Source of the DNA: Dehalococcoidia bacterium
Lineage (GTDB): Bacteria > Chloroflexota > Dehalococcoidia > Lucifugimonadales > Australimonadaceae
Length of the DNA: 64,000 bases
Direction: 5' to 3'
Assembly: GCA_965201135.1 (NCBI GenBank)
Contig: OZ241751.1
Coordinates: 86,706-150,705 of the forward strand
This document shows, one piece after another, positions 1,653 to 63,748 of this stretch (positions are counted from its first letter, which is position 1; each line of letters starts with the position of its first letter). The translations under genes were made by a program, and so were the position numbers. The notes under the pieces were generated by a model. That model ran no database searches. It was not told the origin of the DNA and was given only the letters and a program-made list of their open reading frames with translations.

Positions 1653-1687
1653 CGGCCCTTTGAGCGCGCAACGCGCCCGCATCCCTC

Positions 1688-2231
1688 TACGCGCGCCGGC
1701 GAGTTGGGCCATCTTGACTGCCATTACCTCGGCAAGGACCAGATCGTTGGGAGCAAGAGCCGCCGCTACCTCGTGTCCGTGGTGGACGCCTGCACGCGGC
1801 TGGTTTGGGCGGAGGCGGCGGACGACCTGAAGAGCCTGAGCGTGATGTTCGCGGCGCTCAAGAGCCTCAACCTGCTGAACGCGGAGTACGGGATTCGGTT
1901 CGAGGCCGTGTTGACGGACAACGGGGCGGAGGTGGCCTCGCGGGGGAACGTTGAGGGGCATCCGGTGGAGCGGCTGCTGGGGGAGTTGGGGATCAAGCAT
2001 CGCTACACGCGGCCGTACCGGCCGCAGACGAACGGGAAGGTGGAGCGGTTCTGGCGGACGCTGAACGAGGAGTTGCTGGAGGGGACGACGTTCGAGACGG
2101 CGGAGGAGTTGCGTGAGGAGTTGGCGCTCTACCTGCTGTACTACAACACGGCGCGTCCGCATCAGGGTTTGGGGGGCAAGACGCCCCTCCAGGCCCTGCA
2201 GGATCTGTCAACGAATTACTTGACATCTACA
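1688..2231 (+). mobile_element. 5'-truncated IS481-family copy (integrase-core half only)
   Basis: ORF 1623..2243 matches the C-terminal rve/DDE half of the full copy at 62654..63696 (GELGHLDC..RPYRPQTNGKVERF..ARPHQGLGG). It ends in the same terminal IR, TGTCAACGAATTACTTGACATCTACA (2206..2231). The N-terminal HTH part is absent, and the first residues of the ORF are a read-through of an R1 repeat. Confidence 0.8.
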
Positions 2232-2530
2232 ATTCCCGCGTAAGCGGGAACCTACCCCCAAGCGCCCCGTCATTCCCGCGTAAGCGGGAACCTACCCCCA
2301 AGCGCCCCGTCATTCCCGCGTAAGCGGGAACCTACCCCCAAGCGCCCCGTCATTCCCGCGTAAGCGGGAACCTACCCCCAAGCGCCCCGTCATTCCCGCG
2401 AAAGCGGGAACCTACCTCCACTGCCGTCATTCCCGCGAAGGCGGGAACCTACCTCCACTGCCGTCATTCCCGCGAAGGCGGGAACCTACCCCCTCTACCG
2501 TCATTCCGCGAAAGCGAGACCCTACCCCAC
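2232..2530. repeat. Tandem array of about 8 R1 hairpin units (5 x 40-bp period, then 37-38-bp variants)
   Basis: ATTCCCGCGTAAGCGGGAACCTACCCCCAAGCGCCCCGTC recurs at 2232, 2272, 2312, 2352 and 2392. Variant units with a GAAAG/GAAGG loop follow to about 2530. Confidence 0.9.
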
Positions 2531-3263: not shown

Positions 3264-4426
3264 TGCGCCTCGCATCCCGAATGGCGCTCCTCGGCACCGA
3301 AACCGCGTTCGAGGCGCTCGCCCGCGCCAAAGCCCTCGAGGCCCAGGGGCGCGACATCGTTTTCCTCGGCATCGGCGAGCCCGACTACGACACGCCTCCC
3401 CACATCGTCGATGCCGCCAAGGACGCGCTCGACGACGGCCACACCCACTACGTCCCCTCGCCGGGCCTCCCCGAAGCCCGCGAGGCCGTCGCCGCCGCCG
3501 TCGGGCGCAGGCTAAACTGCGAAATCCCCGCCTCCCGCGTCGTCATCACGCCCGGCGGCAAGCCCGTTATGTTCTTCGCCATCCTCGCGCTCGCCCAGGA
3601 AGGCGACGAGGTCGTCTACCCCAACCCCGGCTTCCCCATCTACGAGTCAATGATCCGGTTCGCGGGCGCGACCCCCGTGCCGATGCGCCTCCGCGAGGAA
3701 CTCGGCTACAACCCCGACCCCGACGAACTCGCATCCCTCGTGACCCCGCGAACGCGCCTCATCATCGTCAACTCCCCCAACAACCCCTGCGGAAGCGTGA
3801 TGCCCGCCGAGACGCTCCGCCGCGTCGCCGAACTCGCCGTCGAAGCGGACGCCGCCGTCCTCTCCGACGAAATCTACAAAGACTTCCATTACGACGGCGC
3901 GCATCTCTCCATCACGAGTTTCCCCGGCCTGTGGGAGCGAACCATCCTGCTGGACGGCCTCTCCAAAAGTTACGCGATGACCGGCTGGCGCATCGGCTAC
4001 GGCGTGCTCCCGGAGTCCCTCGTCGAGCCCGTCTCTCGCCTGATCACCAACAGCGTCTCCTGCACCGCGGCCTTCGGGCAGGTCGCCGCGATGACCGCGC
4101 TGCGAGCGCCGCAGGACTCCGTCCGCGAAATGGTCGCCGAGTTCGCAAAGCGCCGCGTCCTCCTCGTGGACGGCCTCAACCGGCTTCCCGGCGTCTCCTG
4201 CCCTATGCCCGGCGGCGCCTTCTACGCCTTCCCCAACGTCGCGGGCACGGGAATGACCAGCGCCGAATTCGAGCGCGGCGCGCTGGACGAGGCCGGCGTC
4301 TCCCTTCTCGCCGGAACCTCCTTCGGCGCCTACGGCGAGGGCTACGCTCGCATCTCCTTCGCCAACTCCCAAGCCAACATCCGCGAAGCCCTCGACCGCC
4401 TCGCCCGCTGGCTCGCCGCCCGCTAA
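3263..4426 (+). CDS. Class I/II PLP-dependent aminotransferase (aspartate/aromatic type)
   Basis: 387 aa with NPGFPIY, NSPNNPCG and SKSYAMTGWRIGY (PLP-lysine motif). Its ATG overlaps the upstream stop (TAATG). Confidence 0.85.
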   Translation: MRLASRMALLGTETAFEALARAKALEAQGRDIVFLGIGEPDYDTPPHIVDAAKDALDDGHTHYVPSPGLPEAREAVAAAVGRRLNCEIPASRVVITPGGKPVMFFAILALAQEGDEVVYPNPGFPIYESMIRFAGATPVPMRLREELGYNPDPDELASLVTPRTRLIIVNSPNNPCGSVMPAETLRRVAELAVEADAAVLSDEIYKDFHYDGAHLSITSFPGLWERTILLDGLSKSYAMTGWRIGYGVLPESLVEPVSRLITNSVSCTAAFGQVAAMTALRAPQDSVREMVAEFAKRRVLLVDGLNRLPGVSCPMPGGAFYAFPNVAGTGMTSAEFERGALDEAGVSLLAGTSFGAYGEGYARISFANSQANIREALDRLARWLAAR

Positions 4427-4484
4427 TTGCCTGCGGCGGCAAGTTGCGCCGCGCCCCTCCCCCCGTCAATCCCGCCCCTCCTCC

Positions 4485-4621
4485 GTCATTCCCGGCGAAA
4501 GCGGGAACCTACCCCGCGTCCCCGTCCCGCCCCCCGAACGGCGCTGCGTCCCCTTTGCCGTCATTCCGGCGTAGGCCGGAATCCAGAGGCGCGCAAGCGC
4601 CTAGCCCCCCCTCTCCCTATA
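4485..4621. repeat. Mosaic of hairpin repeats (R1, R1 variant, R3 GGCGCGCAAGCGCC, left half of R2)
   Basis: R1 lies at 4485..4513 and an R1 variant (GTCATTCCGGCGTAGGCCGGAATCC) at 4560..4584, followed by R3. The R2 left half CCCCCCTCTCCCTATA ends at 4621, where the IS5 element begins. Confidence 0.8.
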
Positions 4622-5827
4622 GAGACCTTTGCATAACCTTCCGCAATCGCGCACAATGACCGCAACCCGCAACCGCGAGGAGACTGCTATGCATCTCGAA
4701 GCCAGCGACCCCTCCTTCATCGACGCCTTCCTCCCTTTCAACGCAGGCCGCAACGACCGGCTCGACCGCATCGACCGCCTCATCGATTGGCCCAAAGTCG
4801 CAGCCCTACTCGACGATGTCCACGCCGCGCCCGAAGGACGGCCCGCCTACCGCCCGATCACGATGGTCAAGATCATCGTCCTCCAGCAGTGGTACGACTC
4901 CTCCGACGTCGGCATGGAGGAGGCGCTCCAAGACCGGCTGTCGTTCCGCCGCTTCGCGGAGCTCACGCTGACGGACGCGGTTCCCGACCACTCGACGATC
5001 AGCCGGTTTCGGAAGAAGATCACGGAGCGGGGGCTGGCGCGGGCGCTGTTCGCGGAAGTGAATCGGCAGTTGGAGGCGAAGGGCATGCTGGTGAAGCGCG
5101 GAACGCTGATCGACGCGACGATCATCGAGGCGCAGGCGCGGCGCCCGCATTCGGAGGCTGGAGCGCGGAGCGGAACGGACCCCGACGCCGCGTGGACGAA
5201 GAAGGGGAAGAAGTCGCATTTCGGCTACAAGATGCACATAGGGATGGACGCGGGGTCAGGGCTGGTGCGCGGGGTTGAGTTCACGCCTGCGAACGTTGCG
5301 GACACGGATGTTGCGGACGCGCTGATCATGGGGGACGAAGAGGCGGTGTACGCGGACAAGGCGTATGAGTCGAAGGAGCGTCGTGAGCGTCTGCGGGCGC
5401 AGGGCGTGAAGGATCGGATCATGCATCGGGGGCATAAGCATCAGACGGAGCTGCCGCATTGGCAGCGGCGGCGGAACGGGCTGCTGTCGAAGGTTCGGGC
5501 GCCGGTGGAGCAGGTGTTTGGGACGCTGAAGCGCAGCTATGGGTACTGGCGGGTTCGGTACATGGGGCTAATGAGGAACGAGGCGGAGGCGTTGTTCAAG
5601 GCGCTGGCGTACAACCTGCGGCGCGCGGACGGGTTGAGAGAGGGTTGCGCTGTGCATGGGTAGGGGCGTATTGCGCCCGTTGGGGGTACGAGGCCCTGCG
5701 AAGCCCCTAAATTGGGGGCGAGCAGGGGAGGTGGAGGCCGTTATCGGGGGATTTGGGCGGTTGAATGGCTGATTCCGGGGGCGCGGAACTGCCGATCGCG
5801 CTGATGCGAGGGTTATGCAAAGGACTC
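4622..5827 (+). mobile_element. Complete IS5-family insertion sequence (1206 bp)
   Basis: The TIRs GAGACCTTTGCATAACC (4622..4638) and GGTTATGCAAAGGACTC (5811..5827) match at 16 of 17 positions. Flanking 5-bp direct repeats CTATA lie at 4617..4621 and 5828..5832. The interior encodes a DDE transposase. Confidence 0.9.
4689..5663 (+). CDS. IS5-family DDE transposase (InsH-like N-terminal domain + DDE_Tnp_1)
   Basis: RPAYRPITMVKIIVLQQWY..LSFRRF, LIDATIIEA, HFGYKMHIGMD, AVYADKAY and VEQVFGTLKRSYGYWRVRYMGL. The ATG at 4689 follows GAGGAG; the track ORF starts at a TTG at 4629, inside the TIR. Confidence 0.9.
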   Translation: MHLEASDPSFIDAFLPFNAGRNDRLDRIDRLIDWPKVAALLDDVHAAPEGRPAYRPITMVKIIVLQQWYDSSDVGMEEALQDRLSFRRFAELTLTDAVPDHSTISRFRKKITERGLARALFAEVNRQLEAKGMLVKRGTLIDATIIEAQARRPHSEAGARSGTDPDAAWTKKGKKSHFGYKMHIGMDAGSGLVRGVEFTPANVADTDVADALIMGDEEAVYADKAYESKERRERLRAQGVKDRIMHRGHKHQTELPHWQRRRNGLLSKVRAPVEQVFGTLKRSYGYWRVRYMGLMRNEAEALFKALAYNLRRADGLREGCAVHG

Positions 5828-5932
5828 CTATAAGGGGAGAGGACGCCGCGAACGCGGCGGGAGAGGGTACTGCGTAGACGAGGCGCAGCCTCGTCTACGG
5901 GGGCGGGATTCCCGCCTACGCGGGAATGACGG
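5828..5932. repeat. Right half of the IS-split R2 repeat, a GTAGACGAGG/CCTCGTCTAC hairpin, and R1 (reverse)
   Basis: CTATAAGGGGAGAGGACGCCGCGAACGCGGCGGGAGAGGGTACTG lies at 5828..5872 and GGGATTCCCGCCTACGCGGGAATGACGG at 5905..5932. Confidence 0.8.
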
Positions 5933-6002
5933 GATGGGGCGCGGCGCGGAGAGCGAATGGCGGCGGGCGCGGAGAGAGGGGTAAGATTGCAACGGGGCGG
6001 CG

Positions 6003-6031
6003 TTGACAATATGCGCGGGCGCTGATAGAAA
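6003..6031 (+). promoter_or_regulatory. Putative sigma70-type promoter of surface-protein paralog 1
   Basis: TTGACA (6003..6008), 17 nt, TAGAAA (6026..6031), with TG one nt upstream of the -10. The identical arrangement and flanks recur at 15349..15377 upstream of paralog 3. Confidence 0.5.
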
Positions 6032-6186: not shown

Positions 6187-6446
6187 GTGCGCCGAAACAG
6201 GGGCGCGGGCGCAGGATCAGAGGAACAGCGTCCGGGTAAGCCGGGCGCAAAGGACAACGAGACAGGCGCCGCGTCCAGGGTAAGCCGGGCGCGGAGGGAC
6301 AACGAGACAGGTGCCGCGTCCGGGGCAGCCGGGCGCGGAGGACAACGAGACAGGCGCCGCGTCCGGGGCAGCCGGGCGCGGAGGACAACGAGACAGGCGC
6401 CGCATCCGGGGCAGCCGGGCGCGGAGAACGGCGAGACAGACACCGG
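6187..6446. repeat. Tandem repeat of about 43 bp, 5-6 copies, each with a GC-rich hairpin
   Basis: Units start at 6230, 6273, 6318, 6361 and 6404, with a degenerate copy before 6230. The unit is GTCCGGGGCAGCCGGGCGCGGAGGACAACGAGACAGGCGCCGC, and CCGCGTCCGG..CCGGGCGCGG can pair. Confidence 0.85.
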
Positions 6447-15105: not shown

Positions 15106-15123
15106 TGTATCCCCCGGGGCCTC

Positions 15124-15273
15124 GTCATTCCCGCGAAAGCGGGAACCTACCCATCCCCCGCCCTCCCCGCCCGCCCCCATGACCGTCATTCCCGCGAAAG
15201 CGGGAACCTACCCATCCCCCGCCCTCCCCGCCCGCCCCCATGACCGTCATTCCCGCGAAAGCGGGAACCTACC
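15124..15273. repeat. Tandem repeat, 61-bp period, about 2.5 copies, each containing an R1 hairpin
   Basis: GACCGTCATTCCCGCGAAAGCGGGAACCTACCCATCCCCCGCCCTCCCCGCCCGCCCCCAT repeats, with R1 units at 15124, 15185 and 15246. Confidence 0.85.
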
Positions 15274-15348
15274 CCCAAGCGCCGCGCCCGCCGATAGCGT
15301 AGAATCTCCCCCGCGCCCCAGCCGCGCGAGGTTGCAGGGCGCAAGGCG

Positions 15349-29664: not shown

Positions 29665-30696
29665 TCACCGATCGTAGGCCGGAACGGTGTCGATCCACAG
29701 CCCCCCGGTTTCCGCGATGTAGGCGATCTTCTTTACGTCGGCTATGTCCATGCCGTAAGGGATTGCCCTGTAGATTGCGAACTGCTCCCTGTCGGAGTCG
29801 CTGACGTCGCGGCGGTTGTAACTGCTGTAGCGCGCCATCAGGCTCGGCCCCGTCACGTGCCCCATCGCCGTCAGCGCGTGCACCAGTTCGTGCGTGATCG
29901 TCGCGTTCAGGTTGCTGCTTTGCCCCGCCACGACGATGCGCGCGACCGCGAACTTGTGCCGGTAGCGCCACCACTCCGCGTACCCCAGCCGGTCGCTGCC
30001 TAAGAGGTCGTCGTCTCTGAACTCCACGAGGATGGCGTTGTCGCCGAGAACCTCGTTGTAGTTGTCGCGATCGGCCTTGCTCATATCGCTCGCGTCGATC
30101 ACGTTGAACTCGTAGCCAAGCAATTCGCCCAACTGCTCCAGCGCGTTGTCCAGCCTGTTCCTGAAGCCCACCTCCGTGTAGAAGTGAACGTCAATCGTCC
30201 CGGGCCATTTCAGCACGACGTCGAAACGCCAACCGCACGCGCCGTCCGACCCGTCCTCCGGCCTGTCGAAGAAGCAGTTCCACGCCTTCTTCGTCGCGTA
30301 GATCGGCATCGGCGTCGGGGTAGGCGACGGCGTAGGCGTGAAGGTTGGCGTCGCCGTCGGCGTCGGCGTGAGCGTAGGAGTCGGCGACGGCGTAGGCGTA
30401 ATCGTAGGCGTCGCCGTCGGGGTAGGCGTGAGCGTTGGGGTCGGCGACGGCGTGGGCGTGAGCGTTGGCGTCGGGGTAAGCGTCGGCGTGGAGGTGGGAG
30501 TCGCCGTCGGCGTAGGCGTGGGGATTGGCGACGGCGTCGGGGTAAGCGTCGGGGTCGGCGTGAGCGTGAGCGTTGGGGACGGCGCAGGCGCGATCGTGGC
30601 GGTCGGGGGCGGCGTCGGCGTGGGAGCGCTTTGGCAGGCCGCGAGCGCGGCGGCGAGGGAGAGAACGCAGGCGGGAAGGAGGGCGGCGCGGCGCAT
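29665..30696 (-). CDS. Lipoprotein with a long Pro/Thr-rich linker and a C-terminal HExxH putative zinc-metallopeptidase domain
   Basis: Signal + lipobox [21 protein letters not shown]. About 110 aa of PTPT/PSPT repeats, then [14 protein letters not shown]. Confidence 0.6.
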
Positions 30697-36280: not shown

Positions 36281-36481
36281 ATGAACGCCCGATCTCTGCT
36301 GACGATGGCCGCCATCTGGCTGTTCCTCGTCGTCGTCCCCTACCTGCTCGGCCCGGTTTGGCTCGGCGGAAGCCTCGACGGCAGTTTCGTCGTCGCCTAT
36401 ATGATCTGGTTCGTCATCGCCGCCACGCTCACCGCCGCGGCCTACGCGATGCACGTTAGGGAGTCGCAACGCCGCGAGTAG
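36281..36481 (+). CDS. Small membrane protein (66 aa, two predicted TM helices)
   Basis: ATG 10 nt after AGGAG. MNARSLLTMAAIWLFLVVVPYLLGPVWLGG..FVVAYMIWFVIAATLTAAAYAM. The track ORF from 36158 runs through repeat R5. Confidence 0.5.
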   Translation: MNARSLLTMAAIWLFLVVVPYLLGPVWLGGSLDGSFVVAYMIWFVIAATLTAAAYAMHVRESQRRE

Positions 36482-36612
36482 CGAGCGCGCCCGGCGCAGG
36501 GGCAAGCGGCGCGAGTAGCGAGCGCGCCCGGCGCAGGGGCAAGCGGCGCGAGTAGCGAGCGCGCCCGGCGCATAGGCAAGCAGCGCGAGCCGCGTCCGGC
36601 GCATAGGAAGGG
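36475..36612. repeat. Tandem repeat, 37-bp period, about 3.7 copies
   Basis: GCGAGTAGCGAGCGCGCCCGGCGCAGGGGCAAGCGGC starts at 36475, 36512 and 36549, with a partial copy at 36586. Confidence 0.85.
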
Positions 36613-37913: not shown

Positions 37914-38140
37914 GTCATTCCCGCGTAGGCGGGAATCTCGTATCCACCTCTCTCCAGAGAGGCCGTCGCATAATCTACCGTCATTCCGGCGTAGGCCGGA
38001 ATCCAGAGGCGCGCAAGCGCCGTATTCACCTCTCCCTATAAGGGGAGAGGACGCCGCGTAAGCGGCGGGAGAGGGTACTGGGAACGGCAGCCGAGAGGTT
38101 GCGCAAGGTCTCCCATCGGAGGCAGTTGCATAACCTGCAG
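37914..38140. repeat. Repeat mosaic (R1, CCTCTC/GAGAGG hairpin, R1 variant, R3, R2, degenerate IS5-TIR-like pieces, R1)
   Basis: R1 at 37914..37938, R1 variant + R3 + R2 at 37980..38080, GTTGCGCAAGGTCTCC and GCAGTTGCATAACC at about 38098..38135, then an R1 beginning at 38139. Confidence 0.8.
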
Positions 38141-38272: not shown

Positions 38273-38533
38273 ATGCCTTACGAGTGGGACGAGGCCAAGC
38301 GGCGCGGCAACATCGCCAAGCACGGCATAGACTTCTCTGCGATCGAGCGCTTCCAATGGAGCGCCGCGCTCATCGAGCCGGACGACCGGCATAGCGAACC
38401 GCGATTCCGCGCGTTCGGCTACATAGAACTCCGTTTGCACACGGTCGTGTACACTGAACGCATGGGGAACACCCGGATCATCAGCATCCGCAAATCCAAC
38501 GCGAAGGAGATGGAACGCTATGCCGCCCCTTAA
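38273..38533 (+). CDS. brnT: BrnT-family (DUF497) type II toxin
   Basis: 86 aa with YEWDEAKRRGNIAKHGIDF..DDRHSEPRFRAFG..RLHTVVYTER..RIISIRKSNAKE. Confidence 0.8.
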   Translation: MPYEWDEAKRRGNIAKHGIDFSAIERFQWSAALIEPDDRHSEPRFRAFGYIELRLHTVVYTERMGNTRIISIRKSNAKEMERYAAP

Positions 38534-38825
38534 GCCCGGAACGATATGGCCTACGCCTGAGGAAGACGCGGCGATCAACGCAGGCATCGCCCTCGACCCC
38601 GACAACCCGGAGTTGACGGAGGAGGATTTCGCTCGGATGCGCCCCGCGATGGAGTTCGCGCACGCGCGGCGGCTGGAGGCGGAGCGCCTGGCGCGGGAGG
38701 CCGCCGGCAAGACGCGCGTGACGATCCGCCTTGACTCCGATGTCGTGTCCCGCCTGCGCGAGGACGGCCCCGGCTGGCAGGCGCGGGCGAACTCGGCGCT
38801 CCGGCAGGCCGTGCTCGGGGCGTGA
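38520..38825 (+). CDS. brnA: BrnA-family antitoxin
   Basis: 101 aa; overlaps brnT by 14 nt, with SD GAAGGAGA. The C-terminal KTRVTIRLDSDVVSRLREDGPGWQARANSALRQAV is typical of BrnA. Confidence 0.75.
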   Translation: MPPLKPGTIWPTPEEDAAINAGIALDPDNPELTEEDFARMRPAMEFAHARRLEAERLAREAAGKTRVTIRLDSDVVSRLREDGPGWQARANSALRQAVLGA

Positions 38826-42248: not shown

Positions 42249-43743
42249 TCACGGCGTTTCGTAAGTACGAACGCCCGCGCCGTTCCTGTTCATGGTCACG
42301 ATGCCATCCCATCCATCATAGAAAGCAATCCGCGAACTATCCGGCGACCAGGCGGCTCTCATATATGAGAAATCCGCCTTAAGGGGCAATTCTAGGCGCC
42401 GCAGGCCGCTTCCATCCGGCCGAATGACACGGGCGGCGTCAGCAATGAACAGGATCTCTTCGCCGTCGGGCGACCATGTCACCTGAGAGATTGGCCTCGC
42501 GCTGTCGCCTTCCCATATCACCCGATCATTCGTTCCGTCTCGGCTGATTAAATGAACGCTCACGCTATCGTAGTCGCTGCTTCCGAATGCAAGGTCGCGG
42601 CCATCAGGCGACCACGACGGCCCGCCGAAAGTAATGGAATTGAGCCTAGTTTTACGTGGGACTCCGGAAGTCTCATAAGAGGTCGCGGATGCAATTTGCA
42701 AGGGTTCGATTTTATCAATTCCCGTGAGAAACACGCCTATTTCAACAACCTCTCCATAACCGGCGTCAGAATCGACGTTTATCGCATTGATAAACGCGAA
42801 TTCTTCGCTATTGGGCGACCAGGCAACCGGATAGAGCAATGCGCCGCGGCTCGAGGTTCTCAACTCGCCTTTCGCATTCGCCACGTTGATAACGACGCTG
42901 TTAGATGCGAAATTCCAAAGGCTTCCCCCTCTAACGCCAAGCCAAGAAAGGAATACGATATGCTTTCCGTCGCGTGACCACACAGGGAAAAAGTCATACG
43001 ATGCGTTGTCCGTCAGCCTTATTCGATTCGAGCGTAGTCCAATCGACTATCGCAATTTCCGGATCATGGTTTGACCTATAATTCGTCACGAATTCGCATG
43101 AAGTGTACGCAATAAGCGGTTCGGAAGGAGAGGGATCCAAATGCAAAGAGAATCTCCAACGATAAGGGCTTGCATTGATAATTGTCTCAACGATTTCCGT
43201 ATCCAACGAGAGTTTGCCTATCGAATCCGAAGCATTCCAGCCGATGCGGTTTTGTTGATAATCGAATACTAAATAGTCTCCTACTTCCGTGGTGATCCAA
43301 TGAACGAAACGCTCGGGATGAGGGAATCCTGGAGGTATAAGAGGGTGAAACCAACAGGCGGTAGGCTCTCCGTCGGGCACAGGGGTTTCCGGGGGCGGCG
43401 GCGGCCACGGAGTGGGCCATTGGGCAGGCGCGAGCGTTGCCGTGGGCCTAGGCGAGGCGGCAAAAGTGGGCGCTGGAGTGAGCGTAGGCGTGAACGTAGG
43501 CGTGAACGTAGGGGTTGGAGTAGGGGTAGGAATGGGCGTGAAAGTGGGCGTTGGGGTGAGCGTAGGCGTGAACGTAGGGGTTGGCGTAGGCATAGGGCTG
43601 GGCGTGAAAGCGGGGGTTGGGGTGAGGATAGGCGCAGGAGCAACAGTGGGCGTGGGCGCGGGCGACGCGCACGCGACCGCCGCAAGCGCCAAGAGCGCCC
43701 CCGTCGCCAAAACGCGCAGCCGCAAGACGATGATTGCGCTCAT
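42249..43743 (-). pseudogene. TolB-like beta-propeller lipoprotein with PT-rich linker, interrupted by a frameshift (or assembly error)
   Basis: ORF 42994..43743 (signal MSAIIVLRLRVLATGALLALAAVAC plus a PTPT linker) stops at 42994. The PD40 repeats (PVWSRDGKHIVF, WSPNSEEFAF, WSPDGRDLAF, WSPDGEEILF, WSPDSSRIAF) continue in another frame. That frame is open from about 43045. Confidence 0.6.
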
Positions 43744-62596: not shown

Positions 62597-63633
62597 CTAT
62601 CGTCGTGAGCGCGCCTCCCTTCTCCGCCAACGGAGAGTGGCAGGCGTCATTCCTGTAGATGTCAAGTAATTCGTTGACAGATCCTGCAGGGCCTGGACGG
62701 GCGTCTTGCCCCCCAATCCCTGATGCGGACGCGCCGTGTCGGAGTACAGCAGGTAGAGCCCCAACTCCTCACGCAACTCCTCCGCCGTCTCGAACGTCGT
62801 CCCCTCCAGCAACTCCTCGTTCAGCGTCCGCCAGAACCGCTCCGCCTTCCCGTTCGTCCGCCGACGGTACGGCCGCGTGTACCTGTGCTTGATTCCCAAC
62901 TCCCCCAGCAACCGCTCCATCGGATGCCCCGCCAAGTTCCCCCGCGAGGCCGCCTCCGCCCCGTTGTCAGTCAGCGCCGCCTCGAACCGAATCCCGTACT
63001 CCGCGTTCAGCAGGTTGAGGCTCTTGAGCGCCGCGAACATCACGCTCAGACTCTTCAGGTCGTCCACCACCTCCGCCCACGCCAGCCGCGCGCGGGCGTC
63101 GAGCATGTCGACGAGGCAGCGGCGGCTCTTGCTTCCCACGATCTGGTCCTTGCCGAGGTAGCGGCAGTCGAGATGGCCCAACTCGCCGGCGCGCGTCTTG
63201 ATGATCTTGCGCTTGGACTGCTGCATCGGGGTCAGCCGGTTCATGCCGTGGCGTTGGCGGATGGCGTAGATGGCGGGGGCTTCGGGGCGCGGGCGCCCAG
63301 TTTGGGGAGGAGGATAGCGTAGGTCTCGTAGCGGTTGACGCCCTTGCGGCGCTGTTCGAGGACGAGCTGTTCGATGAAGGGAGGAGTCCGGCGGGACTTC
63401 CAGCGTGGGCCGCGCTTGGCGGGGAGGAGTGCGTTGGCGTCGCCGGACTCGCGGTGGCGGTTGTAGTACTTGGCGAAGGTCTGGCGGCTGACGCCGTGGA
63501 AGGGGTGGAAGTCCTGGACGAAGCGGAACTTGGGGCGCTCTTGGCCTTGACGAGTTGGTATTCGGCGATGAGGAATCGCCGCTTCTGGGTGTAGTTGCGC
63601 TCGATGGTGCGGGTCGTTGCGGTTGTCCTTCAT
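62597..63633 (-). pseudogene. IS481-family transposase, split by a frameshift at a homopolymer; the ORF reads through the terminal IR
   Basis: The HTH part (ORF 63241..63633: FHGVSRQTFAKYYNRH..) and the rve part (IYAIRQRHGMNRL..GELGHLDC..TNGKAERF..) are in different frames. They switch near the G5/C5 run at 63275..63279. The stop codon (62597) lies outside the IS in flanking DNA. Confidence 0.7.
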
Positions 63634-63696
63634 GGTTCGTCTCCAGATGGCCTGTCGCCTCGGCCAATTCTGTCAACGAATTACCTAACATCTACA
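62654..63696 (-). mobile_element. Full-length IS481-family insertion sequence (1043 bp)
   Basis: The terminal IRs TGTAGATGTCAAGTAATTCGTTGACA (62654..62679) and TGTCAACGAATTACCTAACATCTACA (63671..63696) match at 24 of 26 positions. The flanking 5-bp direct repeat is ATTCC (62649..62653 and 63697..63701), inside an R1 hairpin. Confidence 0.88.
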
Positions 63697-63748
63697 ATTC
63701 CCACGTAGGCGGGAATGACGGGGAAGGGGTAGGTTCCCGCTTTCGCGG
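63697..63748. repeat. R1 (right part of the IS481 target) and a second R1 reverse
   Basis: ATTCCCACGTAGGCGGGAATGACG at 63697..63720 and GGTAGGTTCCCGCTTTCGCGG at 63727..63748. Confidence 0.8.

Follow-up and report, generated by a model that had tools for sequence, protein, structure and literature searches.

The stretch of Dehalococcoidia DNA analysed here (64,000 nt of contig OZ241751.1, called the window, to whose full length all window positions refer) carries at 62654..63696 an insertion sequence (IS) with a split transposase gene. It is very probable that this IS is a decayed copy of a stop-less IS481-like element of ~1,047 bp which homes to a hairpin repeat, termed R1, and that a truncated copy at 1688..2231 derives from the same element. 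An original prediction, made from the window sequence, had proposed that an IS481-family element targets a fixed position in R1, that its transposase open reading frame (ORF) runs out through the terminal inverted repeat, and that this frame is interrupted at one point. Target specificity was borne out far beyond the two copies in the window, and the out-running frame proved to be shared by intact and evidently active copies elsewhere. The interruption turned out to be one of several signs of decay.

The full-length copy lies on the minus strand and is 1,043 bp long, against 1,047 bp in its active relatives; it is recognised by its inverted repeats and its profile match. In transposase sense the left inverted repeat (IRL, 63669..63696, minus strand) reads TGTAGATGTTAGGTAATTCGTTGACAGA and the right inverted repeat (IRR, 62654..62681, minus strand) reads TCTGTCAACGAATTACTTGACATCTACA. 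The two arms, TGTAGATGTCAAGTAATTCGTTGACAGA and TCTGTCAACGAATTACCTAACATCTACA, are 28 nt long and 93% complementary. The interval 62649..63701 first assigned to the element spans the flanking duplications as well, and the IS proper is confined to 62654..63696. On the plus strand a target-site duplication ATTCC is present at 62649..62653, where it is preceded by the GTC of the 5' arm of a hairpin, and again at 63697..63701, where it starts the rest of the interrupted hairpin. The first part of this R1 unit, CGTCATTCC, occupies 62645-62653, and its remainder, ATTCCCACGTAGGCGGGAATGACG, occupies 63697..63720 (plus strand). When the IS and one ATTCC are removed and the flanks rejoined, the sequence CGTCATTCC-CACGTAGGCGGGAATGACG is restored, which is an R1 unit and which folds as single-stranded DNA into a hairpin with a 10-bp stem (-10.8 kcal/mol, z = -4.0). 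The second copy (plus strand) is truncated at its 5' side to 544 bp, retains only the DDE half of the transposase and has its right inverted repeat at 2204-2231. It ends CATCTACA|ATTCCCGCGTAAGCGGGAA against the R1 unit at 2232..2250 (plus strand), with the same junction as the full copy, though the IS is turned the other way round with respect to the loop. This unit is the first of a tandem R1 array at 2232..2528 (plus strand; 40-bp period x 7.7 copies). The direct repeats, the restored R1 unit and the shared junction had each been noted in the original prediction, and all three stand.

The two copies are 92.1% identical over 544 bp. The truncated copy is 98.2% identical to an intact IS at another locus, L119, while the full copy is 94.2% identical to the L119 element and 95.3% identical to a further intact one at L137; no further copies of the inverted-repeat core were found in the window. 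The word GTCATTCC/GGAATGAC, which marks the insertion site, occurs 38 times in the window against ~1.2 expected by our own estimate from base composition, and by our arithmetic two random insertions would both fall at such a site with p ~ (38/64000)^2, or ~4e-7. The inverted-repeat core itself contains CGAATTAC, which matches GGAATGAC at 6/8 positions; a hand estimate gives ~0.2 for such a match by chance anywhere in 28 nt of repeat, and the resemblance was not used. The truncated copy starts abruptly at ~1688, which is 38 bp past another R1 unit (1627-1652), and no recognisable inverted repeat or duplication was found around this start (window 1653-1690).

Analysis of related elements in other genomes provided the main evidence for a fixed target. 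An exact scan of one genome per species with the 16-nt inverted-repeat core yielded 118 loci, mostly in metagenome-assembled genomes (MAGs) of Chloroflexota and Dehalococcoidia and also in Nitrospirales, Balneolaceae, Gammaproteobacteria and others. Where the core was accompanied by an IS-like tip (..ACAYNTACA), the next bases were either ATTCC and the rest of the hairpin, or GGAATGAC. In a first pass 81/91 IS-like ends were in the target, and when all ends from the window, its relatives and metagenome contigs were taken together the count was 129/154, in a set spanning Chloroflexota, Dehalococcoidia, Nitrospirales, Balneolaceae, Gammaproteobacteria, Betaproteobacteria and low-GC metagenome contigs. 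Among non-redundant flanks outside the window 121/145 (83%) lay in the target, compared with 2.9% at random positions in the same loci, and the metagenome contigs in the tally include some of 33-41% GC. Every junction within the target class is GTC|ATTCC or the complement of this. Just beyond the duplication, the outer flanks carry G in 59/61, A in 60/61 and C in 60/61 cases, and conservation is confined to these three bases. Elements with both ends in one locus (n = 36) have a perfect 5-bp duplication in 19 cases and one with a single mismatch in five more, and the duplication follows the host's own repeat where this differs (ATCCC, GTTCC). The intact copies of L119 and L137 are both in the target with perfect duplications. 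Both orientations of the IS are used, with IRL facing the loop somewhat more often (left ends 14 vs 5, right ends 7 vs 13). Two full-length elements, L018 3617-4662 and L039 2581-3627, lack a duplication and carry an outer flank at each end, GTCATTCC at the left and GGAATGAC at the right, the arrangement expected if two copies have recombined, for example by inversion or deletion. Hardly any difference, or none, separates the 28-nt inverted repeat of the window (67% GC) from that of the metagenome contigs L121-L136 (33-57% GC), whose hosts belong to different phyla. This near-invariance across hosts suggests strong constraint, recent horizontal spread, or both.

The identity of R1 helps to place this target. 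R1 units read CGTCATTCCCGCG(T/A)A(G/A)GCGGGAA(T/C)C and are oriented, with GTC on one side only. They are 2-3 mismatches from the Neisseria NTS consensus, which is CGTCATTCCCGCGMAVGCGGGAATCYRG (PMC11893778), and share with NTS/dRS3/SRM repeats the oriented layout CGTC + ATTCCC-N8-GGGAAT + C. The published degenerate SRM pattern matches the window 23 times, whereas 50 shuffles gave 1.0 match on average and at most 3, and the folding energies of the R1 hairpins range from -8.5 to -13.4 kcal/mol (z = -4 to -5.4). Judged by its sequence, R1 is an NTS/SRM-class hairpin and not a private repeat. Such repeats are acted on by SsnA, a GIY-YIG nuclease which cuts single-stranded DNA upstream of the repeat and mainly needs the three bases upstream of the palindrome (PMC11893778). 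The IS junction lies exactly between these SsnA-critical bases (GTC) and the palindrome. In the same source an SsnA-type gene is typically flanked by repeats, this association being found in 81% of SRM-rich genomes, and symbionts of plants and animals are over-represented among species with >300 SRM elements; insertion sequences appear there only as an analogy (PMC11893778). A nick by SsnA was considered as the insertion point and ruled out, as the IS junction is inside the motif. When the six-frame ORFs of the 64-kb window were screened with a simple regular expression for a GIY-YIG-like motif, none matched. The ORFs between close R1 units, considered as a possible nuclease, were likewise ruled out, being a BrnT toxin/BrnA antitoxin pair at 38273-38825 (Pfam 84 and 72 bits) bracketed by R1/SRM units at 38139 and 38833; this arrangement resembles the repeat-gene-repeat layout reported for ssnA. 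A second R1/SRM tandem array with a fixed spacer, like that beside the truncated copy, lies at 15123-15274 (61 bp x 2.5). Tandem repeats other than R1 were seen at 6228-6439, 30305-30558, 36466-36589 and 43477-43657, with units of 43 bp x 4.9, 18/30/60 bp, 37 bp x 3.4 and 66 bp.

It is conceivable, although on balance unlikely, that the target is read as a structure, either an extruded cruciform or a single-stranded hairpin at the replication fork, and not as the duplex word GTCATTCC. SsnA offers a parallel, since it acts only on the single-stranded hairpin and its cleavage needs the same GTC and palindrome (PMC11893778). Nearly all targets of the IS are hairpin repeats in which the loop and the inner stem differ from case to case without loss of pairing, and the duplicated pentamer varies with the host repeat (ATTCC, ATCCC, GTTCC). 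Against this, transposases of the rve-type DDE class normally integrate into double-stranded DNA, the regular 5-bp duplication fits staggered cuts in a duplex, and conservation past the duplication is limited to the three outer bases. In addition, one recent copy (P0002 in L120) is inserted at GGAAC|GAC without an evident hairpin. A strict hairpin test of loop-side flanks, positive in 32/45 within 60 nt and 29/63 within 30 nt, is too crude to separate sequence from structure.

The state of the full copy was measured by aligning it to the intact L119 element. The transposase pseudogene extends over 62597..63633 (minus strand), from an ATG at 63633 to a stop codon TAG at 62597-62599 outside the IS, and changes frame three times. 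In order along the gene, an extra base is present at 63611..63613 (CCC where the intact copy has CC), a base is missing at 63541..63543, near 63542 (GGCCAAGAG against GGCCAAAAAG in the intact copy), and the T of CCCTCC has been lost at 63275..63279, leaving a C5/G5 run; a 3-nt in-frame deletion at 63228..63230, near 63229, then removes one Pro of ..LTPPMQQ.. (all minus strand). Only the third of these frameshifts had been recognised in the original prediction; it is real and is not the sole one. There are 60 substitutions relative to L119, distributed 22/14/24 over the three codon positions, an even spread such as neutral decay would give, and 49-60 relative to the active copies. Several motifs are altered as well. 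RPYRPQTNGKVER has become RPYRRRTNGKAER where the homologues shown by the search are invariant, and the changes RPYRPQTNGKVERFW to RPYRRRTNGKAERFW, YYNT to YSDT and VDACTRL to LDARARL affect residues invariant in all of these homologues. Intact copies have one continuous ORF and read CCCTCC (AAGCCCTCCACC) where the window has C5; the check for a shared frameshift, proposed at the outset, gave a negative answer for the intact copies aligned. Of the three readings offered for the split frame, that of an inactivating indel proved to be the right one, in view of the indels and the altered invariant motifs. Judged from these alignments, the full copy is a dead pseudogene and its split frame is an inactivation, not a regulatory device. 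That the frameshifts arose during sequencing or assembly, in a full copy that is really intact, seems very improbable. At least one of the three single-base indels falls in a short homopolymer (a CC/CCC run), as such errors might, while the third is a T lost between C runs and is accompanied by a 3-nt deletion. Errors of this kind also cannot explain 49-60 substitutions evenly spread over codon positions, or the replacement of residues invariant in all homologues shown.

In both window copies the DDE frame stays open to the end of the IS; translated, the right inverted repeat gives LSTNYLTST, with TAC where relatives have the stop TAG. As had been stated from the window sequence, termination is left to the flank. 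For the truncated copy the R1 loop provides an in-frame TAA at 2241-2243 (..TSTIPA*). The full copy has a read-through tail at 62597..62653 (minus strand) of 18 further codons, GMTPATLRWRRREARSRR, followed by TAG at 62597-62599 (19 counting the stop). In relatives of 75-84% identity the codons AAT TAG lie within the right inverted repeat, 12 nt from the end, and another subgroup of relatives terminates 29 nt short of the IS end. Both window copies, as well as L119, L120 and L020, carry TAC instead of TAG, and by this G-to-C change the two inverted repeats also become identical at that position. An internal stop in intact copies, which had been named as an observation against read-through, is therefore a matter of lineage: it is present in the two groups of relatives just mentioned and absent from the L119 lineage. 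Read-through is a derived, lineage-specific loss of a stop codon which normally lies inside the right inverted repeat.

On the sequence comparisons, loss of the stop has not halted transposition, and stop-less copies have been active recently. Over their 1,047 bp the elements of L119 and L120 do not differ at a single base (100% identity), and they occupy different sites. Two clusters at 90% identity around them contain 18 full-length proteins with near-identical cores of 328 residues and tails of 3-318 residues, and the existence of many identical copies with different tails shows that the element is still mobile. Ten of the tails begin GMT (GGAATGAC; GGA ATG AC.), seven begin IPA (ATTCCCGC; ATT CCC GC.) and one is off-target. 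Only two tail starts occur because the target is fixed, and by this protein-tail tally 17/18 near-identical full-length copies in the sister metagenome are in the target, the exception being the L120 insertion already described. The longest tail belongs to P0146 (646 aa; ctg394290, ERZ25070167), whose ORF continues for 318 residues beyond its own element, across the DUF772 transposase domain of a neighbouring one, so that a fusion protein of the two has been called. For P0141 no gene with exactly that product was on record, and it was not placed on a contig. Directly downstream of the intact IS in L119, at 4315-6024, are DarT and Macro-domain genes (a DarTG-type toxin-antitoxin by their Pfam labels). 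None of the 40-nt words from the L137 flanks was found in the window. Stop codons borrowed from the flank are known from IS870, ISMt1, IS1547, IS1110 and IS1239 (PMC13630536), whose ORFs likewise continue past the element end and terminate in flanking DNA. For IS1239, a lineage-specific mutation in group A Streptococcus led to polymorphic C-termini in an element that is still active (PMC13630536). The present element differs in that the change is TAG to TAC inside the inverted repeat and not a 1-bp deletion, and in that there is no target (CTAG) which rebuilds a stop.

These recent copies also bear on the idea that the pattern reflects survival and not choice, with insertion being random and only those copies that land in harmless intergenic hairpins persisting. 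R1 units are intergenic and numerous, and insertions in them should be tolerated. Survival cannot, however, give base-pair precision, and GTC|ATTCC is found at 83% of 145 non-redundant ends in genomes ranging from 33% to 67% GC. The same junction is seen in 17/18 near-identical and hence recent copies, and other intergenic DNA is unused, which together leave this explanation extremely improbable. Programmed ribosomal or transcriptional slippage at the C5 run, controlling transposase output as in IS3-type elements, would account for the N-terminal and DDE parts being in different frames with a -1 shift at a homopolymer, but it deserves almost no credence and is to be regarded as excluded, because the functional copies, including 100%-identical recently transposed ones, have a single continuous ORF that reads AAGCCCTCCACC without shift or run, the window C5 stems from loss of a T, two more frameshifts lie upstream in the same full copy, and C5 is, on our reading of the sequence, not a canonical X XXY YYZ heptamer.

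The transposase can be described as IS481-like. The NCBIfam IS481 model is the best match to both window copies, with 135 and 27 bits for the two halves of the full copy and 155 bits for the truncated copy, and the window fragments carry rve-type integrase-core domains (Pfam). Intact relatives score 213.2, 205.2 and 207.3 bits against this model (NF033577), for which the curated cut-off is 224; the next family is IS3 (78-89 bits), and the ISNCY_2 model, which we take to cover the IS1202 group, gives only 26 bits. Pfam models rve, rve_3 and rve_2 match intact relatives above their cut-offs, together with weak helix-turn-helix matches. A search with a frame-corrected conceptual protein from the full window copy returned 3,714 homologues at E <= 1e-10, the closest 89% identical. 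P0001 and ~120 of the homologues listed are single ORFs of 315-386 aa, mostly 323 aa, and public names for homologues are 'integrase core domain-containing protein' or 'InsO family'. In a tblastn search of annotated plasmids the matches named 'IS481 family transposase' were only 30-33% identical, and a named close relative was not found among these plasmid transposases. The termini TGTAGATG...CATCTACA bound 28-nt inverted repeats in elements of 1,047 bp in L119, L120 and L137. The TGT...ACA termini and short target duplication are those described for the IS481 family (PMC10045372). Also in common with that family are the length of ~1 kb and the coding of the transposase by one ORF, in which an N-terminal helix-turn-helix region precedes an rve-type DDE domain and which needs no programmed frameshift; the differences are the duplication of 5 bp, within the family range of 2-15 bp where most IS481 elements have 6 bp, the profile score of 205-213 against 224, and the low identity to plasmid transposases. 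IS481 itself targets NCTAGN, unlike the present clade with its GTC|ATTCC site in hairpin repeats. We have filed the full copy as IS481-like because of its best profile match, its TGT...ACA ends, its ~1 kb length and its single ORF. The element appears to represent a deep IS481-like branch just short of the curated membership score, so that the family name first given holds as the best match and, at 213 against 224 bits, falls a little below the formal threshold.

Some considerations weigh against this interpretation of the element and its target. About 17% of ends lie outside the target class, and some of these are degenerate or rearranged copies. Insertions away from R1 had been named in advance as the observation that would speak against targeting; when tabulated they amount to that ~17% of ends and to 1/18 in the active lineage, the rest being in the target. 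The transposase's presumed role as the chooser of the site is read from patterns of sequence. As between an 8-bp word and a hairpin shape, the only clear non-hairpin insertion is that of L120. The IS481 score is just below the NCBIfam cut-off and plasmid IS481 transposases are distant, and any single indel in the full copy could in principle be an assembly error.

A mechanism consistent with these observations can nevertheless be suggested. The active element, as seen in relatives, encodes one transposase with a 328-residue core, combining a weak N-terminal helix-turn-helix match with an rve-type integrase core that has conserved motifs, and its two ends are 28-bp inverted repeats that hardly vary and have TGT...ACA tips. 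It enters between GTC and ATTCC in the 5' arm of the hairpin CGTC-ATTCCCGCG-loop-CGCGGGAAT-C, in either orientation and with ATTCC duplicated. The transposase itself may read the 8-bp GTCATTCC in duplex DNA and then carry out strand transfers with a 5-bp stagger. Transposition is probably of the copy-out-paste-in type, by analogy with the related IS3 family. The outcome would be insertion into many-copy intergenic sites that are 'safe'. Mutation of the stop in the right repeat (AAT TAG) to TAC lets translation leave the element until a stop is reached in the flank, and the full copy in the window has since decayed by three frameshifts, a 3-nt deletion and ~5-6% substitutions.

The same inverted repeats also bound shorter elements of 205-290 bp that resemble miniature inverted-repeat transposable elements (MITEs), mostly in Chloroflexota MAGs (L017 1502-1755, L045 6613-6868, L056 6532-6768, L071 887-1120, L084 5692-5956, L086 3962-4201, L088 324-578, L103 4080-4321 and L104 4373-4577). 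Most of them lie at the GTC|ATTCC hairpin position with a 5-bp duplication, while L017, L071 and L104 are without a clean duplication, and no MITE-like derivatives were found in the window.

As an insertion parts GTC from the palindrome, it probably disables the unit as an SsnA substrate. It is quite possible, and we offer the idea tentatively, that this unnamed deep IS481-like clade is a dedicated parasite of the NTS/SRM hairpin network, reading the determinants used by SsnA, splitting and probably disabling its substrate, and spawning homing MITEs. If so, SRM repeats would serve both as a nuclease substrate and as a landing pad common to several phyla, and the transposase would be a naturally site-specific DDE integrase with an 8-bp address. 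The window copy itself is unremarkable, being a dead insertion sequence. What deserves attention is the base-precise homing to NTS/SRM hairpins, conserved from phylum to phylum, of this so far unnamed IS481-like clade and of the MITE-like elements derived from it. An IS481-type DDE transposase would join the short list of those homing to extragenic hairpin repeats, and would do so in connection with the NTS/SRM class, whose biology (Ssn nucleases and transformation control) was described only in 2025. With a compact single protein of ~330 residues, an 8-bp address and a fixed 5-bp duplication, target recognition by an rve-type enzyme would become directly testable. There are also consequences for annotation. 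The transposases are unnamed in public records, gene models are given arbitrary C-termini because the stop lies outside the element, and symbiont genomes will be prone to errors in repeat and gene calling where MITE-like derivatives and SRM arrays occur.

In the literature searched, no IS481-type element was described as homing to hairpins, and a full-text search found no paper containing the inverted-repeat core sequence. Comparison with known systems sets the element apart in several ways. The described NTS/SRM-SsnA system is a nuclease cutting a few bases upstream of the repeat, and not an IS making use of it, and the SsnA cut site is not the IS junction (GTC|ATTCC). Transposases of the IS1202 group fall within the IS481 radiation (PMC10045372), and a subclass of that group is described in outline as inserting beside a specific imperfect palindrome, the XerCD (dif-like) site (10.1101/2022.12.17.520857); its target is a different one and its duplications are of discrete lengths, 5-6, 15-17 or 24-29 bp. 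The closest functional likeness is to insertion sequences that target repetitive extragenic palindromic (REP) sequences. A survey of these lists the IS3, IS110, IS4, IS256 and IS5 families and not IS481 (PMC1525189), with IS1397, ISKpn1 and ISPsy8 (IS3), IS621, ISPa11, ISPpu9 and ISPpu10 (IS110) and ISRm22 (IS4) as examples (PMC1525189). The class is defined by >45% of copies lying inside the repeat at a fixed position (Tobes & Pareja 2006), and the corresponding values here are 83% of 145 ends and 17/18 copies of the active lineage. IS110-type elements employ a DEDD recombinase and a guide RNA, as outlined in PMC11208160 and PMC11187229, whereas the element of the window has an rve-type DDE transposase and a 5-bp duplication. 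In common with the REP-targeting elements, most or all of its copies are inserted at a fixed position of an extragenic palindrome that is dispersed through the genome, and it differs from them in that the repeat is of the NTS/SRM class and not the REP of enterobacteria or pseudomonads.

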